In this document: piece after piece, positions 1,064-29,122 of the stretch
Layout of the letters: each line of letters opens with the position of its first letter
Numbering within the stretch: position 1 is the first letter of the stretch
Assembly (NCBI GenBank): GCA_038241735.1
Contig: JBBSST010000012.1
Span: 9,098-73,097 of the forward strand
DNA: 64,000 nucleotides
Direction: 5' to 3'
Origin: Lysobacterales bacterium
Lineage (GTDB): Bacteria; Pseudomonadota; Gammaproteobacteria; Xanthomonadales; Xanthomonadaceae
Position numbers and translations under genes: made by a program
The notes under the pieces: model-generated
What the model was told of the DNA's origin: nothing
Seen by the model: only the letters and a program-made list of their open reading frames with translations
Database searches by the model: none

Positions 1064-1740
1064 GCGTGTGTTTCCATGCTGGCTGCTTGGGTGCGGCCGT
1101 AGCTCAACAGGCGTCCGCGGAATGGCGGTACGTCATTGGCGTTCATGCGGCAGCGCCGTTCGGTGACGGTATAACCCTGTGCAACCACGGCACGCGTGAA
1201 CGGCATGCTGTTGCCGCGACCGGGGTCGGTGATCAATATTTCGGAAGCCGGGAATGCGTGCAACGGCAGCAAGGCCGACAGGCACTCGGCGTGATCGCGT
1301 TCGTACAACACGTCGCTGCCGATGATCAGGTCGAAACGGCCCAATGATGTATTCGGCGCATTCCAGCGCAAGGTTCGATACGGCACGGCGGGCAGCTCGT
1401 TGAGCGCGGCGTTGTAGGCCAGGAAGGTTTCCGCCAGCGGGTGGTAATCGCTGGCAACCACGTCCGCGCCACGGTAGCGCAGCACCAGGCTGGCAAGGCC
1501 CAGGCCGCAACCGAGTTCAAGGATGCGCTTGCCGGCGATATCGTGCGTCGCCATGGCTTCGGCCAACAGGCGCCCGGACGGCCAGACATGCCCAAACAGG
1601 CTCCATTGCGCCGATGAAATGCCCAGGCGCTGCGCGTTGTGGTCGGGATCGGCAAACTGCTGCAGGTCGGTGAGTGAGCGGATGCGGTAGTCGTGATCGC
1701 CGAGGCGAAACGTGCGGATGTGGGTGTCGTAGCCCGGCAT
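1060..1740 (-). CDS. class I SAM-dependent methyltransferase (Nnt1/METTL21-like protein-lysine MTase type)
   Basis: 226 aa. ILELGCGLGLASLV matches SAM motif I, and DLIIGSDVLYE is typical of the Methyltransf_16-like group. Confidence 0.85.
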   Translation of the reverse strand: MPGYDTHIRTFRLGDHDYRIRSLTDLQQFADPDHNAQRLGISSAQWSLFGHVWPSGRLLAEAMATHDIAGKRILELGCGLGLASLVLRYRGADVVASDYHPLAETFLAYNAALNELPAVPYRTLRWNAPNTSLGRFDLIIGSDVLYERDHAECLSALLPLHAFPASEILITDPGRGNSMPFTRAVVAQGYTVTERRCRMNANDVPPFRGRLLSYGRTQAASMETHA

Positions 1741-2012
1741 GGGCGCTCCCGGAGATGCGCCATCCAGGAAGATCCAGGATGCCGGCGCGGAGGAGGGGAG
1801 CGAGACGGCGACGAAAATCGGCCGGGCGTAACGCGCGAAACAGCGTGTAACGCCGCCATGCTACGCCACCGGCCCGGAGGCGGCCTCATTTCAGGGCAAA
1901 GCTTCGTGATTATTCAGCGTGGAAGCGCGGACGGTTGGCGGCCCGGGCAGGTTCGGCACGGCGACCCTGCACATCCAGCGCCCAAGGGAATCTTGAGCCG
2001 CGTCTACACGGC

Positions 2013-2042
2013 CAATTCCATTCATCGCAATTCCATTCATCG
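2013..2042. repeat. perfect 15-bp tandem duplication (CAATTCCATTCATCG x2), with a degenerate third copy to about 2057
   Basis: Read directly at 2013-2027 and 2028-2042. It lies in the 400-bp divergent intergenic region between the MTase (-) and thpR-like (+) genes. Confidence 0.9.
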
Positions 2043-2096
2043 GACTCCCTTCATGGGAGTTTCCGGGGATCTGGTCGCTTGGGCGATCGCGGGGTT

Positions 2097-2125
2097 TTCA
2101 GCCGTTATCATTTTCTCAATATAAA
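2097..2125 (+). promoter_or_regulatory. possible sigma70-type promoter (TTCAGC-17 nt-TATAAA) for the 2H-phosphoesterase gene
   Basis: The only AT-rich patch in the intergenic region. Hexamers at 2097-2102 and 2120-2125 have a 17-nt spacer. Prediction by eye only. Confidence 0.3.
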
Positions 2126-2143
2126 TGACGATGAATCGATTAC

Positions 2144-2743
2144 ATGGATAAACCGGCAGCAACCACCGCGCAGCTCTCCTTCGAGGCCATGGCGTCGAAG
2201 AAAACGACTGATCGCCTGTTCTTCGCCCTGTTTCCCGAGCAGGAGGCCGCTGCGCGGATATCGACCCTTGCACAGTCGCTGCGTGGTGAACACCGATTGC
2301 ATGGGCAGGCGTTGCGCGAGGATCGCCTGCACGTCACGTTGCACCATCTTGGCGATTACGCGGGCGTTCCACAGGACGTGGTCGCGCAGGCTGGCGTGGC
2401 CGCGGCGCGGTTGGCGGTGGCGGCATTCGAGGCCAGCTTCGACCACGTTTCCAGCTTTTCCGGCAGGCCAGGCAATTGTCCGCTGGTCCTGCGTGGTGAC
2501 CAGGGTTTGGTGCCGCTGCTGGCAATGCAGCGTGAGCTCGGTGAGTCCATGAAAATCGCCGGGATTGGGCGTTGGGTCAAAAGCGACTTCATCCCGCACG
2601 TCACCCTGCTGTACGACGCGCGCAGCGTTGCCATGCAGCCGGTCGAACCGATCGCGTGGACGGCACGCGAGTTCGTGCTTGTCCATAGTGAGCTGGGCCA
2701 GACCCGGCACCATGTCCTCGGACGCTGGCCGCTGCGCGCCTGA
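2144..2743 (+). CDS. thpR: 2H phosphoesterase / RNA 2',3'-cyclic phosphodiesterase (LigT/ThpR family)
   Basis: Two HxT motifs (LHVTLHHLG and PHVTLLYD) and an RLFFALFP N-terminal strand. An alternative start at 2189 (MASKK...) is equally plausible. Confidence 0.8.
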   Translation: MDKPAATTAQLSFEAMASKKTTDRLFFALFPEQEAAARISTLAQSLRGEHRLHGQALREDRLHVTLHHLGDYAGVPQDVVAQAGVAAARLAVAAFEASFDHVSSFSGRPGNCPLVLRGDQGLVPLLAMQRELGESMKIAGIGRWVKSDFIPHVTLLYDARSVAMQPVEPIAWTAREFVLVHSELGQTRHHVLGRWPLRA

Positions 2744-2826
2744 GCCAGGTTCGTACCCGCCTTGCAGCGCGTCCACGGCCGTCGCCGCAAGTAAGATGGG
2801 GGTCCGATGATTCTCCAGGTGGGGCG

Positions 2827-3453
2827 ATGGCCAAGGCTGCGCGCATGACGCTTCCCGCAGGCCAGCTTGCTGTCCTGGAGGCTGCCTATGCCTCGCCGCC
2901 ACGGGCTTACCACAGCTTCCAGCACGTGCAGGAAGTACTGCGTCAGCACGCCGATGTCGACAGCGGGCCGGGCTGGTTGCAGCCTGTGGAAACGTATCTG
3001 GCCATGCTTTACCACGACGCCATCTACGAGGCCGGCCGCAGCGACAACGAGGCGCGTTCGGCCCAGCTCGCCATTGCGGAAATCGCCCGTTGGTTGCCGG
3101 AGGCCGACATCGACGCGGCGCGCGTGGCTGCATTGATCGAACTCACCGCGCGCCATGGCCAGTTCAGCCCGGATGATTTCGGCGATGGCGTGTCGGCCGC
3201 GGACACCCGTCATTTCCTCGACTGCGACATGGCGATCCTCGGTGCCGACCCCGCTGTATTCGATGCCTATGACCGCGGCATCGCGGCCGAGTACCGGGGC
3301 AAGGTGCCTGGCTGGATATTCAAGCTGCAGCGCCGCCGTTTTCTCAAGGCATTGCTCGCCCGGCCGCGCATCTACCTCAGCGATTTGTTCCACGATCGCT
3401 ACGACCTGCAGGCACGCGCCAACCTGCGTCGCGCCATAAACGAGAAGCGCTGA
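2827..3453 (+). CDS. HD-superfamily metal-dependent phosphohydrolase-like protein (COG4339-like)
   Basis: 208 aa. The YHSFQHVQEVL and LYHDAIYE motifs are typical of this uncharacterised HD-like family. Alternative start at 2845. Confidence 0.75.
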   Translation: MAKAARMTLPAGQLAVLEAAYASPPRAYHSFQHVQEVLRQHADVDSGPGWLQPVETYLAMLYHDAIYEAGRSDNEARSAQLAIAEIARWLPEADIDAARVAALIELTARHGQFSPDDFGDGVSAADTRHFLDCDMAILGADPAVFDAYDRGIAAEYRGKVPGWIFKLQRRRFLKALLARPRIYLSDLFHDRYDLQARANLRRAINEKR

Positions 3454-3458
3454 GCGCG

Positions 3459-4010
3459 ATGCAAGGATTCGCCACCGGGCGCTTGCGGATGCGCAGGCTC
3501 GCCCAGGCCGACGAAGCGTTCTATTGCCGCATCTACACCGATGCAGGGCTGATGCGGCACGTCGCGCAAGCGTCCACGGAGCAAACGGCCCGGAAGGATT
3601 TCCAGAACGCATGCTGCGAGGCTTTCCAAAGCGCGCAGTGGTGGTACTGGGTGATGCAGACACGGGACCAAGAGCACGACGTCGGCCTGTTGGGACTGGT
3701 AGCCAGCGAGGGCGTCGGCGGATACGCGGGTGAAATCGGCGCGATGCTGTTGCCTGCTGCACAAGGCGGCGGACTCGCTGCGGAGGCCATTGCCGCGCTG
3801 GTTGATATCGCCTTCGCGCAGACCACCCTGCAGCGCCTGCATACCCGCCATGCCCGGGCCAATGTTGCTGCCGAGGGCTTGATGCGCAAGCTTGGCTTCA
3901 CCCGTGAACTCGCGGACGACAAGGTGTGTTGGCAGTTGTCGCGCGATACCTGGCGCGAAAGCGGAGCATGCCGCCCCAGTGGCTTTGCAAACCCGCATGC
4001 AGATCGCTAG
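3459..4010 (+). CDS. GNAT family N-acetyltransferase (RimJ/RimL-like)
   Basis: 183 aa with the GNAT core (GYAGEIGAMLLPAAQGGGLAAEAIAALVDIAF...NVAAEGLMRKLGF). Starts 5 nt after the HD gene stop. Confidence 0.8.
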   Translation: MQGFATGRLRMRRLAQADEAFYCRIYTDAGLMRHVAQASTEQTARKDFQNACCEAFQSAQWWYWVMQTRDQEHDVGLLGLVASEGVGGYAGEIGAMLLPAAQGGGLAAEAIAALVDIAFAQTTLQRLHTRHARANVAAEGLMRKLGFTRELADDKVCWQLSRDTWRESGACRPSGFANPHADR

Positions 4011-4035
4011 ATTGCCCTCTTTCAAGGGGAATGCC

Positions 4036-4836
4036 ATGGGCGAGCCGGGACGTCTGGTCTGCGTGGGCTTGGGGATGATGCTGGGTGCGCACCTCGGGCC
4101 ACGGGCGCGCAACCACATTGCCCAGGCGGACGTCGTGTTCGCCGCGGTATCCGATCCGCTGGTCGAGTTATGGCTGCAGGACATGCATGCCGACGTGCGC
4201 AGCCTGCAGCCTTACTACAGCGAGGGAAAATCCCGCCGAGAGACCTATCGCGAGATGGTCGAGGCGATGCTGGTCGAGGTAAGGGCCGGCCGACAGGTCT
4301 GCGGCGCGTTCTATGGGCACCCCGGAGTTTTCGCACAGGCTCCGCACCACGCCATCGCCCAGGCGCGCGCGGAAGGGTTCGAGGCCCACATGGAGCCCGG
4401 CATCTCGGCCGAGGATTGCCTGTATGCCGATCTCGGGATCGACCCTGGTACCCATGGCTGCCAGCATTACGAGGCCAGCCAGTTCATGTTCTACCAGCGC
4501 CGGTTCAATCCGGCGGCCTACCTGGTGCTGTGGCAGGTGGGGCTGGCGGGCGATCGCAGCCTGCGCCGCTACTCGACCGGAGGCGAATACCGGCAGTTGC
4601 TGGTTGACCTGCTGGCGGCGGATTATTCGTTGCACCATGAGGTAATCGTCTACGAAGCTGCTACCCTCCCCATAGCGGCCCCGCGCATGGAAACCATGCC
4701 GTTGTCGGGATTGGTCGATACTGGGCTGGATCTTCAATCGACGCTGGTGGTTCCGCCCGGGCGGCCCATGGAGCTCGATCAGGCCATGATCGACAGGATC
4801 TCAGCGCTTGACGCGCGTGCTGGGGAAGGCATTTGA
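4036..4836 (+). CDS. tetrapyrrole-methylase-fold SAM-dependent methyltransferase of the OphMA/SonM (borosin peptide alpha-N-methyltransferase) type
   Basis: 266 aa from ATG 4036 (SD AAGGGGA at 4024-4030). The longer ORF start at 3892 would overlap the GNAT gene. Blocks present: GRLVCVGLG, YGHPGVFA, MEPGISAEDCLYADLGIDPG, YEASQFMF, HEVIVYEAATLPIAAPR. Confidence 0.85.
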   Translation: MGEPGRLVCVGLGMMLGAHLGPRARNHIAQADVVFAAVSDPLVELWLQDMHADVRSLQPYYSEGKSRRETYREMVEAMLVEVRAGRQVCGAFYGHPGVFAQAPHHAIAQARAEGFEAHMEPGISAEDCLYADLGIDPGTHGCQHYEASQFMFYQRRFNPAAYLVLWQVGLAGDRSLRRYSTGGEYRQLLVDLLAADYSLHHEVIVYEAATLPIAAPRMETMPLSGLVDTGLDLQSTLVVPPGRPMELDQAMIDRISALDARAGEGI

Positions 4837-4873
4837 TCCACAACCAAATCAATTAATGGCCAGGGGAATGCAC

Positions 4874-5170
4874 ATGAGCAATATCATCCGGTTTCTTGAA
4901 TCCGCAGGTGCTGATCCGGCGTTTTCCCGCATTTCGGGCGCGGACTACGAGGCAAGCGTGGACTTGCTGCAGGCCGACGATGCACAACGCGATGCGTTGC
5001 TGGCGCGCGACCCGAAGGCATTGAATGCGCTGCTGGGTGGGCGCAACAAGATCTGGTGCTCGCTGTATCCGCCCAAAGAGGACCAGCCGGCCAGGCGCGA
5101 AGAAAAACGCGAGGACCGAGAGGACGAGCAGGATGATGACAACAGCCCTGCTGCGCCTTTAGATGATTGA
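4874..5170 (+). CDS. candidate borosin precursor peptide (98 aa: helical leader, short hydrophobic core, hyper-acidic tail)
   Basis: ATG 4874 with SD AGGGGA and a 6-nt spacer, 37 nt after the MT stop. Sequence: MSNIIRFLESAGADPAF...ADDAQRDALLARDPKALNALLGG-RNKIWCSLYPP-KEDQPARREEKREDREDEQDDDNSPAAPLDD. Confidence 0.6.
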   Translation: MSNIIRFLESAGADPAFSRISGADYEASVDLLQADDAQRDALLARDPKALNALLGGRNKIWCSLYPPKEDQPARREEKREDREDEQDDDNSPAAPLDD

Positions 5171-5191
5171 CTGAGCGCCGGGAGGTCGGCC

Positions 5192-7018
5192 ATGGCACTT
5201 CGCAGTCTATGGTTTCTGGTGATCGCCGCCTGCTTGTGCATGGCCCCGGTCTGCAGCCTTGCGGCAGACAATACCGAGGCGATGCTGCAGAAGGCCGACA
5301 GCTTGCGAAGCTCGAACCCCGGCGAGTTTGCCCTGCTGCTCGCCAGCCTCAATGTCGCCCATGACGGCGTCACCCAGAATCAACGGGATCGGATTACCTA
5401 TCTCAACGGCTATTCCAAGGCCTATGCCGGGGATTTTTCCGGAGCGATCCATGACATGCAGGGCCTTGTCGAATCGTCCACCGACGAAGACATCAAGTTC
5501 CGCGCACGGGCATTGATCGTCAATCAATATGCAGTGACGCGGCAGTTTACCGATGGGCTTCGGCAGTTGGAATACATATTGCCGTTCGTGGACCACACCA
5601 CGAACAATGACCTGCGCGATCATGGTTTGGCCGTCACCTCACAGCTATACAACCAGGTGGGCCAGTACAAGCTCGGCCTGCACTATGCCGACAAGATGCT
5701 GGCGGTTGCCAATGCAGCAAGGTCGCGCTGCTTCGCGGGCCAGTACCGCCTCGAGGCATTGCAAAACCTCAACGCGTTGCCCGAAGACGATGCGCCGATC
5801 CGCACAGTGATCGAGCAGTGCGAAAGCGCCAAGGAAGCGGTCGTGACCAATCTTGCGCGCACCCACCTGGCACGCAAATGGGCAGACCATGGTGAGCGCG
5901 CGGCGGCGATTGCCCTGCTGAAATCGCATCTCAAGGAGGTCAAGGCCACTCGTTATCCGCCATTGATCGGCCAGTTCGAGGCACTGCTTGCCGATTACCT
6001 GCTGGCTGACGGCAATTTGGATGGTGCCCAGGCACATGCAGATGCGGCGATCGAACAACGCGCGGGCATGACCTTCTCGATCCATCTTGCCTCGGCCTAC
6101 AAGACGCTTTACGAAATCGCCGAGCGTCGCAATGAGCCGGTTGCAGCGCTTAGTCATTACACCCGCTATGCCGAGACCAACATGGCCTACCTGGGAGAGG
6201 TCAAGACGCGCGAGCTGGCGTATCAAATCGTTCGCCAGGAAACCCTGCAAAAGTCACAACAGATCGAATTGCTTGACCGCAAGAACCAGGTGCTGCAGTT
6301 GCAGCAGCGCGTTGACAGGCAGTCGGCACAATATTCAAGGTTGATGATCGTGCTGCTGGTGTTCCTGATGGGTTCGATCGTGTTCTGGGCCTTCAAGATC
6401 AAGCGCGTGCAGTTGTCGCTGCGACGCATGGCCCAAACCGACGCGTTGACTGGAATTTTCAACCGCCATTATTTCACCCAGCAGTCCGAACATACGCTGG
6501 CGCAATGTGCCCGCGCTGGCGAGGACGTGGCGTTGATCATGTTCGACCTGGATCATTTCAAGTCGATCAACGATCGATTCGGCCACGATGTCGGCGACTG
6601 GGCGTTGAAGCGGGTCACCGATGCCTGCAAGACGTTCTGTCGGCGCATCGACCATCTGGGGCGTATCGGTGGCGAGGAGTTTGCAATCCTGTTGTCGGGT
6701 TGCGATTTACGCGGAGCGACCCGCGTGGCCGAGGATTGTCGCGTCCGCATTGCCAGCATCGACACCTCGCCCAGCGGTCGAAACAAGTTCCTTATCACCG
6801 CCAGTTTCGGCGTCACCGCCTCGTCACTGTCGGGTTACGATCTGGTCAAGCTGCTCTCGCAGGCCGACCAGATGCTGTACCGGGCCAAGCGCGACGGGCG
6901 CAACCGGGTGGCCACCTTTGACGGCCAGGTACCGAACTGGTCGCCGTTGCAGTCGGTTCCTGGCAGCGAGCAGGCCACGGGACAGGGCCCGGTCGCGGTC
7001 GAATCGGGCGCCACCTGA
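5192..7018 (+). CDS. diguanylate cyclase with N-terminal periplasmic TPR-like sensor domain (GGDEF)
   Basis: 608 aa with a signal peptide (LVIAACLCMAPVCSLAA) and one TM segment (LMIVLLVFLMGSIVFWAF). It has a GGEEF active site with an RxxD I-site five residues upstream (RRIDHLGRIGGEEF). SD GGAGG at 5181-5185. Confidence 0.9.
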   Translation: MALRSLWFLVIAACLCMAPVCSLAADNTEAMLQKADSLRSSNPGEFALLLASLNVAHDGVTQNQRDRITYLNGYSKAYAGDFSGAIHDMQGLVESSTDEDIKFRARALIVNQYAVTRQFTDGLRQLEYILPFVDHTTNNDLRDHGLAVTSQLYNQVGQYKLGLHYADKMLAVANAARSRCFAGQYRLEALQNLNALPEDDAPIRTVIEQCESAKEAVVTNLARTHLARKWADHGERAAAIALLKSHLKEVKATRYPPLIGQFEALLADYLLADGNLDGAQAHADAAIEQRAGMTFSIHLASAYKTLYEIAERRNEPVAALSHYTRYAETNMAYLGEVKTRELAYQIVRQETLQKSQQIELLDRKNQVLQLQQRVDRQSAQYSRLMIVLLVFLMGSIVFWAFKIKRVQLSLRRMAQTDALTGIFNRHYFTQQSEHTLAQCARAGEDVALIMFDLDHFKSINDRFGHDVGDWALKRVTDACKTFCRRIDHLGRIGGEEFAILLSGCDLRGATRVAEDCRVRIASIDTSPSGRNKFLITASFGVTASSLSGYDLVKLLSQADQMLYRAKRDGRNRVATFDGQVPNWSPLQSVPGSEQATGQGPVAVESGAT

Positions 7019-7151
7019 CAGGCTCGTCTCTTGCCTGGCGCCGCGGGAATGCCGGCCACCAGCGATCCCCAAGCGCAGCGTGAGGCGTGTCAGGCGGTGA
7101 TCGCGTGTGGGTGTTCGTCGTGGCACTGGGCGAAACGTTTAAGATGCGGCC

Positions 7152-7517
7152 ATGTCAAAGTTGCTGCTCAACCTGCGCCAGGTCCTCGACGACGAGGTCG
7201 ACGACGTGCGTGCCTTCCTCGATGCGCACCAGCTCGAGTATTACGAGACCACGCCCAGCCGCTGGGGAATTTCCTATGGTGGTATCTGGATCACCCATGA
7301 TGCTGACATCCTCGAGGCCAAGCGCCTGATGGCTGATTACCAGCAGCAGCGCCAGGCGCGGGTGCGGTCCGAAAATGCCAAAGCCAGGCTGGATGGCACG
7401 GCCGAAACCTTTGCCGACGTCCTGCGTGAGCAGCCGCTGCGCGTGGCGCTGACCGTCATCGCGATCATCTTCCTGCTCGGGCTCGTGGCGCTGCCGGTAT
7501 GGATACTGCATCGCTGA
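7152..7517 (+). CDS. conserved hypothetical protein with C-terminal membrane anchor
   Basis: 121 aa with good GC3 bias and a C-terminal TM segment (VALTVIAIIFLLGLVALPVWIL). No function recognised. Confidence 0.7.
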   Translation: MSKLLLNLRQVLDDEVDDVRAFLDAHQLEYYETTPSRWGISYGGIWITHDADILEAKRLMADYQQQRQARVRSENAKARLDGTAETFADVLREQPLRVALTVIAIIFLLGLVALPVWILHR

Positions 7518-7766
7518 ACTGGCTCCGCACTCCGTGCAGCTGCGTCAAGCCGGGGCTTGCCCGGATAGCAGGCGGCTGCCCGGTTCGGCATGCTTGCGTG
7601 TCCTGCGCGGCGCCTGCCGACATTGCCCCAGCATGCATCGACACTTGCGTGCCCAATCCCCACAGATGCGCCCACTGATTTGCCTTGCAGCCGCTAACAT
7701 TGGTTGGACGTTCGAGGCTTAAGATGGTGGGTCGCATCACTATGCGTCCTTCGGAGATCGAGATTC

Positions 7767-9382: not shown

Positions 9383-10639
9383 CTAGATTGGCGGCGCCGC
9401 GCCAGCTTCCGCAAGCCATGCCACGGCTCCCTCACCGGCGCGTTTGCCGCTGGCGAAGCATGCCGTGAGCAGGTAGCCACCGGTCGGTGCTTCCCAGTCG
9501 AGCATTTCGCCGGCGCAAAAGATGCCTCCCGGCAAGCGTCCGGGAATGGTGTGCAACATGAGATCGGCATCCAGCGCTTCAAGGCGCACGCCGCCGGCAC
9601 TGCTGATGGCTTCGGCCAGGGGGCGGGGGCGCTTCAACAGCAAGGGCAGGCGTTTGATGGTGGCGGCGAGCGTCGCCGGTTCTTCCATCGCGCTGCGATC
9701 CAGGACCTCGCGCAGCAGTGCGCGTTTCACCCCCGACAGCCCGGTCTGGCGGCGCAGGTGCTCGGCAAGCGTGCGGTGGCCGCGCGGCTTTGCCAGGGCG
9801 TCCTTTAAGCGTGATTGTTCGCGGTTCGGTGCAAGGTCCAGGTGCAGCAACGCGCTGCCGTCGCGACCGATGGCATCGCGCAGGTCGGCAGACAGCGCGT
9901 AGACCAGGCTGCCTTCGATGCCGCTGGCGGTCGCCACGCATTCGCCCTGCAGTTGATGCTGGACACCGTCGGCGTCGCGCCAATGTGCGATCACCGGCTT
10001 CAGCGGGGCGCCGGCGTGGTGCTGGGCGAAATGCGAGCTCCAATCGATATCGAAACCGCAGTTGGACGCTTGCAACGGTGCGACATCGACACCGCGTTGG
10101 TGCAGGATCTCCTGCCATGCGCCGTCGGATCCAAGCTGCGGCCAACTGCCGCCGCCCAGCGCCAGCACAACGGCGTCGGCGTGCACGTCGCGTTCGCCAT
10201 CGGCTGTCGAAAAACGCAGGTCACCTTCATCGTTCCAGCCGGTCCATCGATGATGTACATGGAAGCGCACGCCCTGGTCGCGAAGGCGCCGCACCCAGCC
10301 ACGCAGCAGCGGCGCGGCCTTGAGGTCGGCGGGAAACACGCGACCGGAGCTGCCCACGAAGGTCTCCACGCCAAGCCCGCGCGCCCATCCACGCAAGGCC
10401 TCGGCGTCAAAATCATGCAGCCACGCAGCCACGGCCTGTTCACGCGTGCGATAGCGCCGTGCGAACGCCGGCATTGGCTCGGAATGGGTGAGGTTGAGCC
10501 CGCCCTTGCCGGCGATCAGGAACTTGCGACCGACCGATCCCTTGGCATCGAACAGGTCGACGTCGACGTCCGCCGCCCGCGCGACCTCTGCGGCCATCAG
10601 CCCGGCTGGCCCGCCGCCGATGATCGCCAGCGTGCTCAC
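9383..10639 (-). CDS. NAD(P)/FAD-dependent oxidoreductase, HI0933/BaiN-like flavoprotein paralogue (TIGR03862-like)
   Basis: GTG start at 10639 gives VSTLAIIGGGPAGLMAAEV (GxGxxG). C-terminal GGYLLTACFASGKRAG motif. The start overlaps the upstream paralogue's stop (GTGA). The 593-aa ORF-track version is an over-extension. Confidence 0.8.
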   Translation of the reverse strand: MSTLAIIGGGPAGLMAAEVARAADVDVDLFDAKGSVGRKFLIAGKGGLNLTHSEPMPAFARRYRTREQAVAAWLHDFDAEALRGWARGLGVETFVGSSGRVFPADLKAAPLLRGWVRRLRDQGVRFHVHHRWTGWNDEGDLRFSTADGERDVHADAVVLALGGGSWPQLGSDGAWQEILHQRGVDVAPLQASNCGFDIDWSSHFAQHHAGAPLKPVIAHWRDADGVQHQLQGECVATASGIEGSLVYALSADLRDAIGRDGSALLHLDLAPNREQSRLKDALAKPRGHRTLAEHLRRQTGLSGVKRALLREVLDRSAMEEPATLAATIKRLPLLLKRPRPLAEAISSAGGVRLEALDADLMLHTIPGRLPGGIFCAGEMLDWEAPTGGYLLTACFASGKRAGEGAVAWLAEAGAAPPI

Positions 10640-11817
10640 GCGACCTCTCCGGCGGCACGGCCCGATGCCCACGCCCATTGGAAGTTGTAGCCACCGAGCC
10701 AGCCACTGACATCGACCACCTCGCCGATGAAGTACAGCCCCGGCACGCGGTTTGATTGCATGGTGGTGGACGAAAGTCCGCGCGTATCGATGCCGCCCAG
10801 GGTGACTTCCGCCGTGCGATAGCCTTCGGTGCCGCTGGCCGTAACCGGCCAATGGCGCAGTTGCGCAGCGATGACACGCAACTCGCGTTCGTCGTACTGG
10901 CGCAGCGGCTTGTTTGCGAACCAGTGCTCGCACAAACGCTGCGCAAACCGTTTTGGCAGCACCTCGGCCAACACCGTCTTCAGCTCGCTGGCAGGATGCG
11001 CGTGACGTTGTGCGCTCAGCCATGCGTCGGCGTCGATGCCCGGCAGCAGGTCGAGATGCAGGGCATCGCCGGGTTGCCAGTACGAGGAGATCTGCAGGAT
11101 CGATGGTCCACTCAGGCCGCGATGGGTGACCAGCATGAAGTTGCGGAACGATTGGCCGTTGCACGTCGCCTCGACCGGCAACGCCACGCCACTGAGATCC
11201 TGCAGGCGCTCGGAGTGCGTGCCGCTCAACGTCAATGGCACAAGGCCGGCGCGCGTGGGCAGTACGTCGTGGCCAAACCGGCGCGCGAGTTCATATCCCC
11301 ATCCGCTTGCACCCATGCTCGGGATCGACAGCCCCCCGCTGGCGACCACCAGCGATGGACTGGTGAATGCACCCAGCGTGGTGCGCAATGCGAAGCCATC
11401 GGCATCGTGTTGCACGGTGTCGATGCTGCACCCGGTTTCAATGCGCACGCCAGCGGCGCTGCACGCATCGACCAGCATGTGCACGATCTGTTTCGATGAG
11501 GTATCGCAGAACAGCTGCCCGAGTTCCTTTTCGTGGTACGCAATGCCGTGCTGCTCGACCATGGCGATGAAATCCGCCGGCGTGTAGCGCGCCAATGCCG
11601 ACTTGCAGTAATGCGGATTGGCCGACAGGAAGTGGCCCGGCTGCGTGCCGGTATTGGTGAAATTGCAGCGCCCGCCGCCCGACATCAGGATCTTCTTGCC
11701 GACCCTGTTGGCATGCTCGATCACCAGCACGCGTCGCCCGCGTTGCCCGGCAGTCAACGCGCACATCAGCCCGGCGGCGCCGGCACCGACGATCACCACG
11801 TCGAACGATCCGGTCAT
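10636..11817 (-). CDS. HI0933/YhiN/BaiN-family NAD(P)/FAD-dependent oxidoreductase
   Basis: 393 aa. MTGSFDVVIVGAGAAGLMCA...GGGRCNFTN at the N-terminus and GGYNFQWAWASGRAAG at the C-terminus are family hallmarks. Confidence 0.9.
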   Translation of the reverse strand: MTGSFDVVIVGAGAAGLMCALTAGQRGRRVLVIEHANRVGKKILMSGGGRCNFTNTGTQPGHFLSANPHYCKSALARYTPADFIAMVEQHGIAYHEKELGQLFCDTSSKQIVHMLVDACSAAGVRIETGCSIDTVQHDADGFALRTTLGAFTSPSLVVASGGLSIPSMGASGWGYELARRFGHDVLPTRAGLVPLTLSGTHSERLQDLSGVALPVEATCNGQSFRNFMLVTHRGLSGPSILQISSYWQPGDALHLDLLPGIDADAWLSAQRHAHPASELKTVLAEVLPKRFAQRLCEHWFANKPLRQYDERELRVIAAQLRHWPVTASGTEGYRTAEVTLGGIDTRGLSSTTMQSNRVPGLYFIGEVVDVSGWLGGYNFQWAWASGRAAGEVA

Positions 11818-20387: not shown

Positions 20388-20540
20388 CGCGTGGTGCCAG
20401 CCAGCGCAGGGCCCGGTCGAAGCCATGGCGCGGGACTGGAAGTACGCCAGCGTTCGTGACGCAGGGCCACGTTGCCCTGGCTGCGGGTCTGTATGCTGGG
20501 GTGCTTGAACCACGCACAGCACAAGGCCACCGATCGCGAC

Positions 20541-21590
20541 ATGGTTTTCCTGGAATCCGACTCGTCCCCGTCCCGCGACCGGCGATTCGTCGACCGCATG
20601 CGCCAGATGCGCGTCCTGGGCCTGGGCTTGGGAGCGCTGTCGATCGCGTCGGTGCTGTACGAAACCGCGGCGCCAGCGGCGATCTGGGTGGCGCTGTTGT
20701 TCAACGGATTTATCTGGCCACACCTGGCCTGGTGGATGGCGCGGCGCAGCGGCGATCCGAAACGCAGCGAATTCCGCAACCTGGTCGTCGACTCCGCGCT
20801 CGGCGGCATCTGGCTGGCAGTCATGCAGTTCAACCTGGTGCCCAGTGCGCTGCTGATCACCATGTTGTCGATCGACAAGATCGGCGTGGCCGGCTGGCCA
20901 TTCCTGGCGCGCACCGCGCTCGCAATGGGGATGGCCTGCGTGGTGGCTTCAGCCCTGCTCGGCTTCCCGGTGCAACTGCACAGCAGCATGCTGAACGTCG
21001 TTGCCTCGCTGCCCTTGATGCTGGGCTTTCCGCTGGCGCTGAGTACGGTTGCCTCCGCACTTGGCCGTCGTGTTGCGCGGCAGAACCGCATGCTGGAACG
21101 GCTCAATCGGATCGACGTGCTGACCGGGCTGCCCAACCGCAGGCACTGGGAGGAGGCGGCCGGCAATGAGCTGGCCCGTTACCAGCGCACGCGCCGCCCG
21201 GCGGTAGTGATGCTGATCGACATCGACAACTTCAAGGAGGTCAACGACAACCACGGCCATGCCATGGGTGACGAGGTGCTGCGTTGCGTGGCCAGCGTGT
21301 TGCGCCATGCCATCCGCGACATCGACACCCCGTCGCGCTACGGCGGCGACGAGTTTGCGGTGTTGCTGGCTGAAACCAACGTCAATGGAGCGCGCGACGT
21401 GGCCGAGCGCATCCGCATTGATTTCATCGACAAGCGCGGACCTGCGGCGGCCGAACAGTTGTGCACCCTGAGCATCGGCCTTGCCGATGCCAATCGCCTG
21501 ATGATCTCCGTGGAGGACTGGATGCAGCGCGCGGATGCGTCGATGTACCGGGCCAAGGCGGCGGGGCGGGATCGCGTTGATATCGCCTGA
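20541..21590 (+). CDS. AdrA/DgcC-like diguanylate cyclase (MASE2 membrane domain + GGDEF)
   Basis: WPHLAWWMARRSGDPKRSEFRNL...NLVPSALL parallels the E. coli AdrA MASE2 domain. GGDEF site with an RxxD I-site (RDIDTPSRYGGDEF). Start chosen at ATG 20541. Confidence 0.85.
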   Translation: MVFLESDSSPSRDRRFVDRMRQMRVLGLGLGALSIASVLYETAAPAAIWVALLFNGFIWPHLAWWMARRSGDPKRSEFRNLVVDSALGGIWLAVMQFNLVPSALLITMLSIDKIGVAGWPFLARTALAMGMACVVASALLGFPVQLHSSMLNVVASLPLMLGFPLALSTVASALGRRVARQNRMLERLNRIDVLTGLPNRRHWEEAAGNELARYQRTRRPAVVMLIDIDNFKEVNDNHGHAMGDEVLRCVASVLRHAIRDIDTPSRYGGDEFAVLLAETNVNGARDVAERIRIDFIDKRGPAAAEQLCTLSIGLADANRLMISVEDWMQRADASMYRAKAAGRDRVDIA

Positions 21591-21679: not shown

Positions 21680-23455
21680 TCAATCGGGCTCGTGGGCGGT
21701 ACGCATCACCGGATACAGGTTGTACTGCTCGTCCCAGGACGAATGCCTGCGCGCGAAGAAGTCCAGCCGCGCTTCGGGACTTTTGGCGAAGTCGGGGTCG
21801 TCGCTCAGGCGCTGCTTGAATTGCGCCTGCAGCCCGGGGGTATTTGCCAGCATCGCGCGCGCGACGTCCTCGGCGACATAGGCTTCCATGTATTCCTTGC
21901 GCTCGAACGCATTATTGAATTCGCCCCATTGGACGTACGCGTCGGGTGCCAGGGGTTCCAGCAACCCCATCAACAGGCGTGCGCCGGGCTGGGCGATCGG
22001 CACGAACAGGCTGCCCACCGGGATGTCGCGCGTTTCCGGCGCCCACTGGCCTTTCAGTGCCAGGCGTTGGTGGCCTTCGAAAGAAGTTGCAGTCAACGTG
22101 GTCTCGCTGGCGCGAAAGGTCTCGACGCGGGCGTTGGGCAAGGCCTGCGCGATCGTCCGGTAGGCAATGCCGTGGGTCTTGAGCTTCTGTGCGATCGCTG
22201 CGGCATACGCGGCGGGGATCAGATAGCCGCCCCTGGGCGCGATCACAGTGACGCTGGGCAGGATCTCGTCGTGCAAGGGCAGGGTCCAGACCTGCGGCGT
22301 GGTTTCGTCGTAGTGCGTCATCAGGGCACCGGAGATCTCCGAGGGCGTGCGTGTGTATGCGTAGCCGCGGAAGTCGATCATGCGGACCTTGGCGCTGGCC
22401 GCGTAAGCCAGGGCCACCGCCTGGCCGCCGAGTTTCGCCGAGCGCGCATCGGCGGCGTCGGCCAGCTTGAGCCAGCGGCCGCCATCGCGCGCAGTCAGTT
22501 CAAGCAGGTCGACGATGGTGTTGCGGGTGCTGCGCACGCGGGTCGGGTAATCCTTCCACGAATGCGTTTCGACCAGCATGCCGAAGCGGTTGCGCAGCTG
22601 GAAATACCCATGCGAGAAACGCGGCGTCGGCACGCCGTCGGAAAACCCCGAGGCCGGGTTGTCGTTTTCGATGAAAGAGGGATAGAACGCCAGCGGCAGC
22701 GAGCCCTGGCGGGCGAGCATGGCGACGGTGTCGTCGCGCAACGCGCGCCCGGCCTTGCGCAGGCCGGCGTCGCCGGCGTTGACCGGCTCGACCTGGATCG
22801 AGATGTCGTGTTCGAACTTGGCGCCGTCGGTGACGTGCAGGTCGACGTAGGCAATTGGGTCCCATGCATTTACCAAGACCAACATTGCCTGCATTTCCGG
22901 CGCGTCGGCCTTCATGTAATCGCGGTTGAGGTTGTAGTTCTGCGCGGTGGTGCGCCAACCCATTTGCTCCGGGCCGCGCTGGTTGGGGCGGTTCCACGGG
23001 CCAAATCGCTCGTGGCCATCGATGTTGAACACCGGCACGAACACCAGCACGATCTTTTCCAGGGCGCCGACGGCCGCCGTGCCATCGAGCACCTGGCGCA
23101 GCGCCAGCAGTCCCGCATCCTTGCCGTCGATCTCACCCGAATGGATGCCGCCCTGGATCAGCAGTACCGGCAACCCCCGGTCGTGCGCGGCTTGCGCCGT
23201 CAGCGCGCCGCTGCGCGAGGCAATCAACGCCTTCATCGGCCGGCCTTCGGGTGTGGTGCCGAAATCAATGCAACGCACGGCGTCGGGGTAGCGTTGCGCG
23301 AACGCGGTACACAGCGCGATGACTTCGTCGTAACGACCGGTCTTCAAGAAGCCGGAGCGCTCCGACACCGTGGTGAGCGCAGCCTCGGCGGCCAAGGCCT
23401 GCAGCGGTTGCGCGAGAAGGGAAAGCAGCAGGGCCATGTGCAGCGGACGGATCAT
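21680..23455 (-). CDS. secreted M14-family zinc carboxypeptidase
   Basis: Signal peptide MIRPLHMALLLSLLAQPLQALAA. The GGIHSGEIDG sequence provides the HxxE zinc ligands, and the gene has M14 carboxypeptidase-type organisation. Confidence 0.88.
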   Translation of the reverse strand: MIRPLHMALLLSLLAQPLQALAAEAALTTVSERSGFLKTGRYDEVIALCTAFAQRYPDAVRCIDFGTTPEGRPMKALIASRSGALTAQAAHDRGLPVLLIQGGIHSGEIDGKDAGLLALRQVLDGTAAVGALEKIVLVFVPVFNIDGHERFGPWNRPNQRGPEQMGWRTTAQNYNLNRDYMKADAPEMQAMLVLVNAWDPIAYVDLHVTDGAKFEHDISIQVEPVNAGDAGLRKAGRALRDDTVAMLARQGSLPLAFYPSFIENDNPASGFSDGVPTPRFSHGYFQLRNRFGMLVETHSWKDYPTRVRSTRNTIVDLLELTARDGGRWLKLADAADARSAKLGGQAVALAYAASAKVRMIDFRGYAYTRTPSEISGALMTHYDETTPQVWTLPLHDEILPSVTVIAPRGGYLIPAAYAAAIAQKLKTHGIAYRTIAQALPNARVETFRASETTLTATSFEGHQRLALKGQWAPETRDIPVGSLFVPIAQPGARLLMGLLEPLAPDAYVQWGEFNNAFERKEYMEAYVAEDVARAMLANTPGLQAQFKQRLSDDPDFAKSPEARLDFFARRHSSWDEQYNLYPVMRTAHEPD

Positions 23456-28075: not shown

Positions 28076-29122
28076 TCAGGGGCGGGCTTCGGTCGCCGTC
28101 ATCGGCGCGATGTCCTGCCCCTGTACCGGTTCGCCGCGTGCGACCGGCTTGCCATCGGCACGATAGTGGTTGAAGAACACCGGCAGGCCTTCGCCATCGC
28201 CAAAGCGTGGCGCATCTTGCAGGTGGAAATGCAGGTGCGGCTCACTGGTGTTGCCGCTGTTGCCGCAGCGGCCGAGAGGTTCGCCGCTGGCGACAGCTTG
28301 GCCCGGCTTGACCGCCACGCTGCCTTGGCGCAGGTGGGCGAGCAGGGCATATTCGCCTTGGCCGAGGTCGAGCATGACGTGGTTGCCGGCCGGTGCTTGC
28401 GCATTGGTCGTGCCGATGGCCTGGTCGGGCAGGCCATCGATGGCTTCGATGACGGTGGCCTCGGCGGGGGCCAGGATGGCTTGGTTCCAGCAGTAATAGT
28501 CGTCGAGCGCCGTGCCTTGGCCGCGATGGGTCTTGCCGTCGAGCATGCGCAGCAGGTCGTAGGCGAAGCGTTGGCCGGGTGATGCGGCGTGGTAGTTCTG
28601 TTCGATCGTGTGTCCGCCCCAGACCACGTGCCACGTGCCGTCAAACGGCAGCCGCAAATTCGCCCTGGTCTGGTAATCCAGATGACTCGAGGGTGCCGCC
28701 TGCGGTGTTGGCTGCACCACGAAGCCGGCGATGCGATCATCGTCATCCAGCACCCATTGCATGCGGATCGGCATCGGCGCCTTGCTCCAGCGTGCGCTGC
28801 GCAGGTAGACACGCATGCCGTCGTGTTGTTGCGCGGACTCCTCGATCACCGATTGTTCCTCGCCCAGGTCGTGCGCGATCTTCGCGCGGAATTGTGCCAG
28901 TGCCTCCGCGCTCTTCAACGCATCACGCATCGCCGGCGACATGCGTGCCCAGACCGCATCGGAATCGCCGTGCAGGAATTGCCGCGTCAGCGCCCGGCCT
29001 TCGGCGAGGATTGATGCGGATGGCGATGCCGGCTCGAGCGGCGCGGCGCGGAGCAGGGTCGGCATCGAGGCCAGCAACATGGCTGCGAGCGCGATTCTTG
29101 CCGGTGACAGGATCGACATCAT
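28076..29122 (-). CDS. secreted M23-family metallopeptidase
   Basis: Signal peptide MMSILSPARIALAAMLLASMPTLLRAAP. C-terminal LytM-type domain with GNSGNTSEPHLHFHL. The start overlaps the upstream regulator's stop (ATGA). Confidence 0.88.
   Translation of the reverse strand: MMSILSPARIALAAMLLASMPTLLRAAPLEPASPSASILAEGRALTRQFLHGDSDAVWARMSPAMRDALKSAEALAQFRAKIAHDLGEEQSVIEESAQQHDGMRVYLRSARWSKAPMPIRMQWVLDDDDRIAGFVVQPTPQAAPSSHLDYQTRANLRLPFDGTWHVVWGGHTIEQNYHAASPGQRFAYDLLRMLDGKTHRGQGTALDDYYCWNQAILAPAEATVIEAIDGLPDQAIGTTNAQAPAGNHVMLDLGQGEYALLAHLRQGSVAVKPGQAVASGEPLGRCGNSGNTSEPHLHFHLQDAPRFGDGEGLPVFFNHYRADGKPVARGEPVQGQDIAPMTATEARP

Follow-up and report, generated by a model that had tools for sequence, protein, structure and literature searches.

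The window analysed here, a stretch of 64,000 nt from a Lysobacterales bacterium (contig JBBSST010000012.1, positions 9,098 to 73,097), carries a locus predicted to be a type IV (split) borosin cluster of the SamM1/SamA1 subtype, that is, a cluster for a peptide that is made on the ribosome and then modified post-translationally, with backbone N-methylation, with a probability of about 0.85. The locus consists of a stand-alone methyltransferase of the OphMA/SonM clade and a separate small open reading frame (ORF) directly downstream, the putative precursor, whose leader is a homologue of the borosin binding domains of SonA and SamA1. The preliminary description of this DNA had proposed such a two-component pair, and the enzyme clade, the adjacent precursor and the profile and fold matches support that interpretation. 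The flanking genes, which encode a GNAT acetyltransferase and a GGDEF protein, were overlooked there and are conserved parts of the cluster. The features of the locus are as follows.

3459-4010, plus strand: GNAT acetyltransferase (183 aa, PF13302 Acetyltransf_3)
4036-4836, plus strand: borosin-type methyltransferase ORF (266 aa, ATG start)
4874-5170, plus strand: precursor ORF (98 aa, ATG start)
4874-5035, plus strand: precursor leader, residues 1-54, predicted five-helix borosin binding domain
5045-5068, plus strand: precursor residues 58-65 (NKIWCSLY), hydrophobic patch and predicted backbone N-methylation site
5069-5170, plus strand: precursor residues 66-98 and stop codon, disordered net-anionic tail and candidate released peptide
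5192-7018, plus strand: membrane diguanylate cyclase (608 aa, PF00990 GGDEF)

The four genes for GNAT, methyltransferase, precursor and diguanylate cyclase lie on the same strand and are separated by gaps of 25, 37 and 21 nt. The methyltransferase ORF is present as first described, with all of the quoted sequence blocks (GRLVCVGLG, YGHPGVFA, MEPGISAEDCLYADLGIDPG, YEASQFMF and HEVIVYEAATLPIAAPR), and a Shine-Dalgarno-like stretch, AAGGGGAA, ends 6 nt 5' of its ATG. The 98-aa ORF 37 nt further downstream was likewise found with the quoted leader sequence and its own Shine-Dalgarno-like AGGGGAA. The string aggggaatgc is common to the ribosome-binding contexts of the methyltransferase (4016-4035) and the precursor (4854-4873), which read caaggggaatgccATG and ccaggggaatgcacATG, respectively. 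A second copy of the enzyme or of the precursor was not found in the window, and a promoter and terminator scan of 1700-7700 returned nothing above the shuffled expectation.

Affiliation of the methyltransferase

PF00590 is the only Pfam domain of the methyltransferase (E=2.3e-20), which agrees with the tetrapyrrole-methylase fold first assigned to it. In a sequence search against the PDB, residues 5-255 of the enzyme matched residues 2-255 (of 263) of SonM (7ltc_A) at E=4e-74, followed by the fungal peptide N-methyltransferases dbOphMA, MroMA and OphMA at 1e-45 to 1e-50. The best tetrapyrrole match, precorrin-2 C20-methyltransferase, reached only E=0.0099, so that SonM and the best precorrin methylase are about 70 orders of magnitude apart. 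These matches, together with NCBIfam models that stay far below their cut-offs (given below), bear out the original placement in the OphMA/SonM clade rather than with precorrin or CysG enzymes. The enzyme is 59% identical to SamM1 over 261 residues (E=3e-114; SamM1 as given by Lee et al. 2024, bioRxiv 10.1101/2024.01.09.574750) and 48% identical overall to SonM.

In the pairwise alignment with SonM, the residues Y58, R67, R68, Y71, Y93, H95, F99, E146, W166 and Q167 are all identical in the methyltransferase, and E173 is replaced by D173. In SonM, mutagenesis had shown that the active-site and clamp residues Y58, R67, Y71 and Y93 matter, and F99, W166, Q167 and E146 are lock residues; all eight are implicated by mutagenesis and structures (PMC8429565). 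The enzyme also carries the motifs YGHP and DCLYAD, which correspond to the two published diagnostic borosin hidden Markov models (HMMs) (Imani et al. 2021), and it stands alone: neither a binding domain nor a core peptide nor a further catalytic domain is fused to it.

The precursor, its leader and its predicted processing

The small ORF is a real gene under coding constraint. Four public contigs encode the identical enzyme, and independent gene callers annotate the small ORF on each of them. Compared with an orthologue 87% identical in protein (locus L085), 32 of the 46 nucleotide differences fall at codon position 3, 26 of the changed codons are synonymous and 13 non-synonymous, and residues 44-78 are invariant. 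Among the leaders of the Arenimonas group, differences at codon positions 1, 2 and 3 number 352, 156 and 859.

The precursor family was examined in a sample of 80 loci from different species whose methyltransferase is 63-77% identical to that of the window, mostly from Lysobacterales (Lysobacter, Luteimonas, Arenimonas, Pseudoxanthomonas, Rhodanobacter, Frateuria), with Rheinheimera and Steroidobacteraceae also present. An iterated HMM seeded with the window ORF detected one or more homologous small ORFs close to the enzyme in 79/79 loci with downstream DNA, in most cases immediately downstream of it, which answers in the affirmative whether relatives keep a small ORF at this place. Several loci have two or three precursor copies and one has nine. 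The consensus of the 88-sequence alignment A1 reads MSNVIxFLExxG...ALLxRDxxALxxLLGGRxxMxC, followed by a hydrophobic patch, Pro and an acidic tail, and this pattern of patch, Pro and acidic tail recurs across the family. A word-indexed protein search with the single precursor sequence returned only the ORF itself and one 87% relative; the homology became visible only once the neighbours of methyltransferase homologues had been collected and a profile built. An exhaustive phmmer search against 1.84 billion cluster representatives gave 312 precursor matches at E<=1e-3, nearly all of 64-108 aa and aligned end to end.

Several members of the family depart from this pattern. In Frateuria sp. GZRR35 (L067:2142-6130), a single methyltransferase is surrounded by nine paralogous precursors, of which one lies downstream and eight form a tandem array upstream. 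The copies of the array have the ending ...Q(V/M)(I/V)WRE and no acidic tail, and the locus is similar to a cluster with 11 precursors that Lee et al. 2024 mention. In a Steroidobacter metagenome-assembled genome (L074:6426-6857), and also in P0192, a long polybasic tail (...RKKKSSKKKGSKKKRGGKKAPRK...) replaces the anionic one, and the Steroidobacteraceae loci L073 and L080 have precursor tails of more than 60 residues that are almost all Asp and Glu. Since polybasic tails (L074, P0192) and Asp/Glu tails (L073, L080) both occur, the released peptide evidently has no fixed charge in the family.

The precursor leader is a homologue of the SonA and SamA1 borosin binding domains. In hhalign comparisons, the family profile matched SonA with a probability of 86% (E=4.8e-6), colinear with SonA residues 1-65 and ungapped, and matched SamA1 better still (probability 95.8%, E=7.9e-9); BLASTP of the precursor against SamA1 gave E=4e-4 across the core. 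The borosin binding domain is defined as a five-helix bundle, SonA residues 1-53 (PMC8429565/PMC10549244), and the AlphaFold2 model of the precursor, built with a 69-sequence alignment, places five leader helices at residues 3-13, 15-19, 22-30, 36-43 and 47-53, with a block-mean predicted local distance difference test score (pLDDT) of 86-92 over residues 1-50. Among 350,542 PDB chains, the top Foldseek match was SonA (9ch7_H; template modelling score normalised to the target 0.69, root-mean-square deviation (rmsd) 2.6 A, 53 columns), and the remaining matches of low rmsd were other SonA chains and, in OphMA and dbOphMA, the part that forms the binding domain. The resemblance to the SonA leader noted earlier, with a SonA sequence that is exact when compared with 7ltc_B, holds at the level of profile and fold, but not in pairwise BLASTP, where it is not significant.

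For the core, two characterised precursors serve as references. SamM1 methylates SamA1 at the backbone amide of Phe52, and SamP (shewasin A, a pepsin-like peptidase) cuts SamA1 at Phe53|Pro54, a cleavage that is efficient only with the methyl group in place; an anionic SamA1 fragment without methylation, PAEDEPEKEQQENEEEDEAPKA, was detected in vivo, and the final sam product itself is still undefined (Lee et al. 2024). SonA is methylated at L63 and I65 and gives shewanellamide A, the only structurally elucidated bacterial borosin product, in which both methylated residues are retained (PMC8429565/PMC10549244). BLASTP aligned KIWCSLYP of the precursor with DVFCVFFP of SamA1, so that the methylated Phe52 stands opposite Leu64 and the SamP cut Phe53|Pro54 opposite Tyr65|Pro66, and hhalign placed the methylated L63 and I65 of SonA opposite Ser63 and Tyr65. 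A methylation zone at residues 58-67 had been predicted from the start, and it agrees with these alignments to the mapped SonA and SamA1 sites. After the patch, the tail Pro66-Asp98 (PPKEDQPARREEKREDREDEQDDDNSPAAPLDD), a parallel to the SamA1 fragment seen in vivo, contains 14 Asp/Glu and 6 Lys/Arg (net charge -8), and its AlphaFold2 block-mean pLDDT is 42-65, with residues 78-91 and 96-98 below 50. The precursor thus has the SamA1-type layout, ...SLY|PPKEDQ... with a 33-residue tail, aligned with ...VFF|PAEDE... of SamA1.

From these comparisons, the hydrophobic patch 58-65 is predicted to receive backbone N-methylation, and a cut is predicted after Tyr65. By homology, the leader would dock on the methyltransferase as SonA does on SonM, and the enzyme, with S-adenosylmethionine as its cosubstrate, would methylate the backbone at one or two amides in the stretch 60-65 (IWCSLY), with Leu64 as the most likely site judging from the SamA1 alignment. 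As in SamA1, the methyl mark and the bulky P2/P1 residues may then let a peptidase cut before Pro66, which would release a 33-residue anionic peptide. Speculatively, the GNAT may further modify the product.

Conserved neighbours and alternative readings

The GNAT gene at 3459-4010 matches PF13302 at E=9.1e-23 and ends 25 nt short of the methyltransferase ORF; among solved structures PA3944 comes closest, though only with E=6e-5. A GNAT homologue lies directly upstream or downstream of the methyltransferase, always on the same strand, in 56/80 loci. It switches sides within the family: it is upstream of the methyltransferase in most Lysobacteraceae and lies between methyltransferase and precursor in Rheinheimera, Tahibacter, some Pseudoxanthomonas and some Steroidobacteraceae (comparison loci L052, L056, L058, L061, L063, L068, L070, L072, L074, L076, L078 and L079). 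The diguanylate cyclase starts 21 nt after the precursor stop, and a GGDEF homologue is found downstream in 77/80 related loci. A signal peptide and one transmembrane helix, both assigned by eye, and between them a periplasmic domain of about 350 aa precede the GGDEF domain (PF00990, E=1.1e-43, residues 414-572), which has an intact GGEEF at residue 493 and an RxxD (RRID) I-site five residues upstream. GGDEF and GNAT have already been given as the commonest borosin neighbours, GGDEF being the commonest Pfam in split borosin clusters (56%) (Imani et al. 2021) and present in the son cluster as well; about 26% of split borosin clusters contain PF13302 (Imani et al. 2021), and the sam cluster has it too (Lee et al. 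2024).

Homologues of SamP were found at 14/80 related loci, 34-38% identical over the roughly 400 SamP residues available, with E down to 2e-76 (L007, L009-L013, L016, L017, L020, L024, L026, L029, L037 and L041, e.g., L013:3131-4309). In 13 of these loci the gene lies directly upstream of GNAT-methyltransferase-precursor, and the 14th (L020) is a fragment at a contig edge. These loci come from Arenimonas, Agrilutibacter and some Lysobacter, with precursors that read ...VPAEDD or ...PAEND. The order SamP-GNAT-methyltransferase-precursor would fit the sam genes, whose accession numbers are consecutive. For this part of the family, Lee et al. 2024 describe the peptidase as clustered or else distally encoded.

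Several observations weigh against a SamA1-type borosin cluster at this locus. No SamP-like PF00026 peptidase was found in the 64-kb window, either by tblastn (E<=10) or by a scan for the double D[TS]G motif. For the predicted cleavage step, the peptidase would then have to be encoded elsewhere in the genome, or another protease would act; no evidence links the M14 (21680-23455) or M23 (28076-29122) peptidase, 16-24 kb away, to the precursor. After the patch, the window precursor reads Pro-Pro-Lys-Glu-Asp in place of the Pro-Ala-Glu-Asp/Asn of the SamP-linked relatives, and the conserved Pro can be aligned in two ways, one residue apart. Single-sequence searches with the 98-aa ORF gave no Pfam or NCBIfam match, or noise only, a chance match in phmmer against the PDB (E=0.46) and no significant BLASTP match to SonA (E=4.2). 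The Foldseek E-values of the leader are not significant (best 1.5), and only the ranking and the rmsd are informative there. Methylation, cleavage and product are proposed for this locus by homology, and any role of the GNAT or of the cyclase is conjectural.

Three other explanations were weighed. That the methyltransferase is a tetrapyrrole enzyme (precorrin, uroporphyrinogen or CysG type) or a YabN/RsmI-type methylase, next to an unrelated hypothetical gene, is highly improbable. PF00590 as the sole Pfam match would suit such an enzyme, its homologues are publicly annotated as 'precorrin-2 methylase', 'siroheme synthase', 'precorrin-6B methylase 1' or 'YabN', and the best NCBIfam match is YabN (E=2.6e-10). 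However, this YabN match scores 39.9 bits against a cut-off of 525, the tetrapyrrole models score 13-18 bits against cut-offs of 163-400, and in the PDB search borosin enzymes stand at 1e-45 to 4e-74, far from the value of precorrin-2 methylase. The NCBIfam cut-offs (YabN, CobI, CobJ, CobM, CysG and uroporphyrinogen methylase) together with the PDB matches speak against a tetrapyrrole or YabN methylase, and the precorrin/CysG assignment is rejected because of these scores, the conserved SonM peptide-binding residues and the 59% identity to SamM1. In addition, a precursor accompanies the enzyme at all 79 loci, and the early remark that no cobalamin or siroheme gene is nearby stands: none was found among 25 other Pfam-scanned proteins (most called genes, 2-33 kb), nor, going by existing Pfam labels, in the two leftmost genes (0.7-1.7 kb) and the DNA upstream of the window.

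Within a borosin pair of the same enzyme and substrate, the mature product could instead be the methylated fragment, as in shewanellamide A, with the acidic tail as a trimmed follower. This is a possibility we take seriously and still consider unlikely: shewanellamide A keeps both methylated residues, the window has no SamP homologue and the final sam product is undefined, but the layout fits SamA1 and not SonA, with a 33-residue anionic tail compared to 6 residues after the last methylated residue of SonA, the methyltransferase is nearer to SamM1 (59%) than to SonM (48%), and the junction of hydrophobic patch and Pro is conserved family-wide. Clearly less probable again is a signalling device in which the processed peptide, or the methylation state of the precursor, is sensed by or regulates the co-transcribed cyclase and so tunes cyclic di-GMP (c-di-GMP). 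The position of the cyclase after the precursor in nearly all related loci, its apparent catalytic competence judging from GGEEF and the I-site, the frequency of GGDEF in borosin clusters, where it is even fused to the enzyme in type X, and the lack of an evident transporter or immunity gene in the module favour this idea. Against it, the evidence is purely correlative, a search of the module gave no peptide exporter, a connection of borosins with c-di-GMP levels is not reported in the literature, which calls the native role elusive (PMC8429565/PMC10549244), and gene neighbourhood alone cannot tell co-regulation from ligand sensing. More doubtful by a small step is a combined model for the Lysobacterales module, with or without SamP, in which methylation would license the release of the anionic peptide and the peptide or its absence would be read by the cyclase, setting c-di-GMP; if true, such a circuit would be the first physiological role for borosins. 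The SamM1/SamA1-type borosin cluster is retained as the preferred reading.

Further genes of the window outside the four-gene locus are listed below.

2827-3453, plus strand: 208-aa protein without a Pfam match, ending 5 nt before the GNAT start
7152-7517, plus strand: DUF6164 gene, following the borosin-linked GGDEF gene
9383-11817, minus strand: two tandem HI0933-like flavoprotein genes (PF03486, PF22780), head to tail
20472-21590, plus strand: second diguanylate cyclase (MASE2 and GGDEF), 13 kb downstream
21680-23455, strand opposite to the second cyclase: secreted M14 carboxypeptidase, following the second cyclase
28076-29122: M23 peptidase

Homologues of the 208-aa protein (64-76% identical) occur in 12/80 loci, either up to about 1.2 kb upstream of the methyltransferase or 3-5.7 kb downstream from it, and its gene together with LigT (2144-2743) represents a Luteimonas-type synteny, which points to an uncultured, Luteimonas-like member of the Lysobacteraceae. 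DUF6164 also follows GGDEF in the close relative L085 and, within 4 kb, in 12/80 loci, all of Luteimonas/Lysobacter type. The upstream HI0933-like ORF, as listed, has a long and probably spurious N-terminal extension.

Comparison with characterised borosin systems

Borosins are already catalogued at large scale: 1,804 OphMA homologues were reported outside fungi, with 22.5% of hits from Xanthomonadales and type IV as the most common type (78.8% of network nodes) (Imani et al. 2021), and with RODEO a total of 3,064 precursors could be paired with 2,699 methyltransferases from 2,596 clusters (Lee et al. 2024). The locus is an ordinary, unremarkable member of this family and matters little beyond its correct annotation, the proper labels being borosin alpha-N-methyltransferase for the enzyme and, for the small ORF, precursor fused to borosin binding domain; in public records such genes appear as 'precorrin methylase', 'siroheme synthase', 'YabN' or 'hypothetical protein'. 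The characterised hosts include Legionella, Shewanella, Streptomyces, Rhodospirillum, Spirosoma and Achromobacter, and the accessible portion of the table of characterised systems in Lee et al. 2024 contains no type IV borosin from Lysobacterales, consistent with the initial statement that no characterised example was known from this lineage. As far as that portion goes, the family is therefore a reasonable test case for two questions, namely whether the SamA1-like, methylation-gated release of an anionic peptide applies outside Shewanella and why a diguanylate cyclase is almost always attached. The 88-precursor consensus could seed a precursor HMM.

Type X borosins, mostly from Xanthomonadales, have GGDEF fused to the methyltransferase (Imani et al. 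2021). The window shares with them the taxonomic order and the pairing of a transmembrane, periplasmic-sensor GGDEF protein with a borosin methyltransferase. A type X fusion was rejected, since GGDEF (5192-7018) and methyltransferase (4036-4836) are separate ORFs with the precursor between them, and the cluster is of type IV because these are separate genes.

Type IV split borosins were founded on the son cluster of Shewanella oneidensis MR-1, which comprises SonM, SonA, a GGDEF protein (SO1480) and a cation efflux pump (SO1481) (PMC8429565, PMC10549244). Like son, the window has a stand-alone enzyme (48% identical to SonM, key residues kept), a separate precursor with a five-helix binding domain and the order methyltransferase, precursor, GGDEF. 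In contrast to son, DUF6164 and not a cation efflux pump follows the GGDEF gene, a GNAT is present that is not listed among the four son genes, and the precursor continues into its 33-residue anionic tail, whereas SonA stops 6 residues past its second methylated residue.

Besides SamM1 and SamA1, the sam cluster of Shewanella amazonensis SB2B encodes SamP (shewasin A) and an acetyltransferase of PF13302 (Lee et al. 2024). The window differs from it in the lack of a SamP-like PF00026 peptidase within its 64 kb, in the length of the precursor (98 aa compared to 78 aa for SamA1), in Pro-Pro-Lys after the patch and a mixed-charge tail, and in its host, Lysobacterales instead of Alteromonadales. 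It shares with sam an enzyme 59% identical to SamM1, a precursor profile that matches SamA1, the succession of binding-domain leader, Cys-containing hydrophobic patch, Pro and anionic tail (KIWCSLYP|PKED... compared to DVFCVFFP|AEDE...) and a PF13302 GNAT in the cluster, and a SamP homologue sits directly upstream in related Lysobacterales loci. Of the characterised systems, the closest one is SamM1/SamA1/SamP of S. amazonensis and not SonM/SonA.

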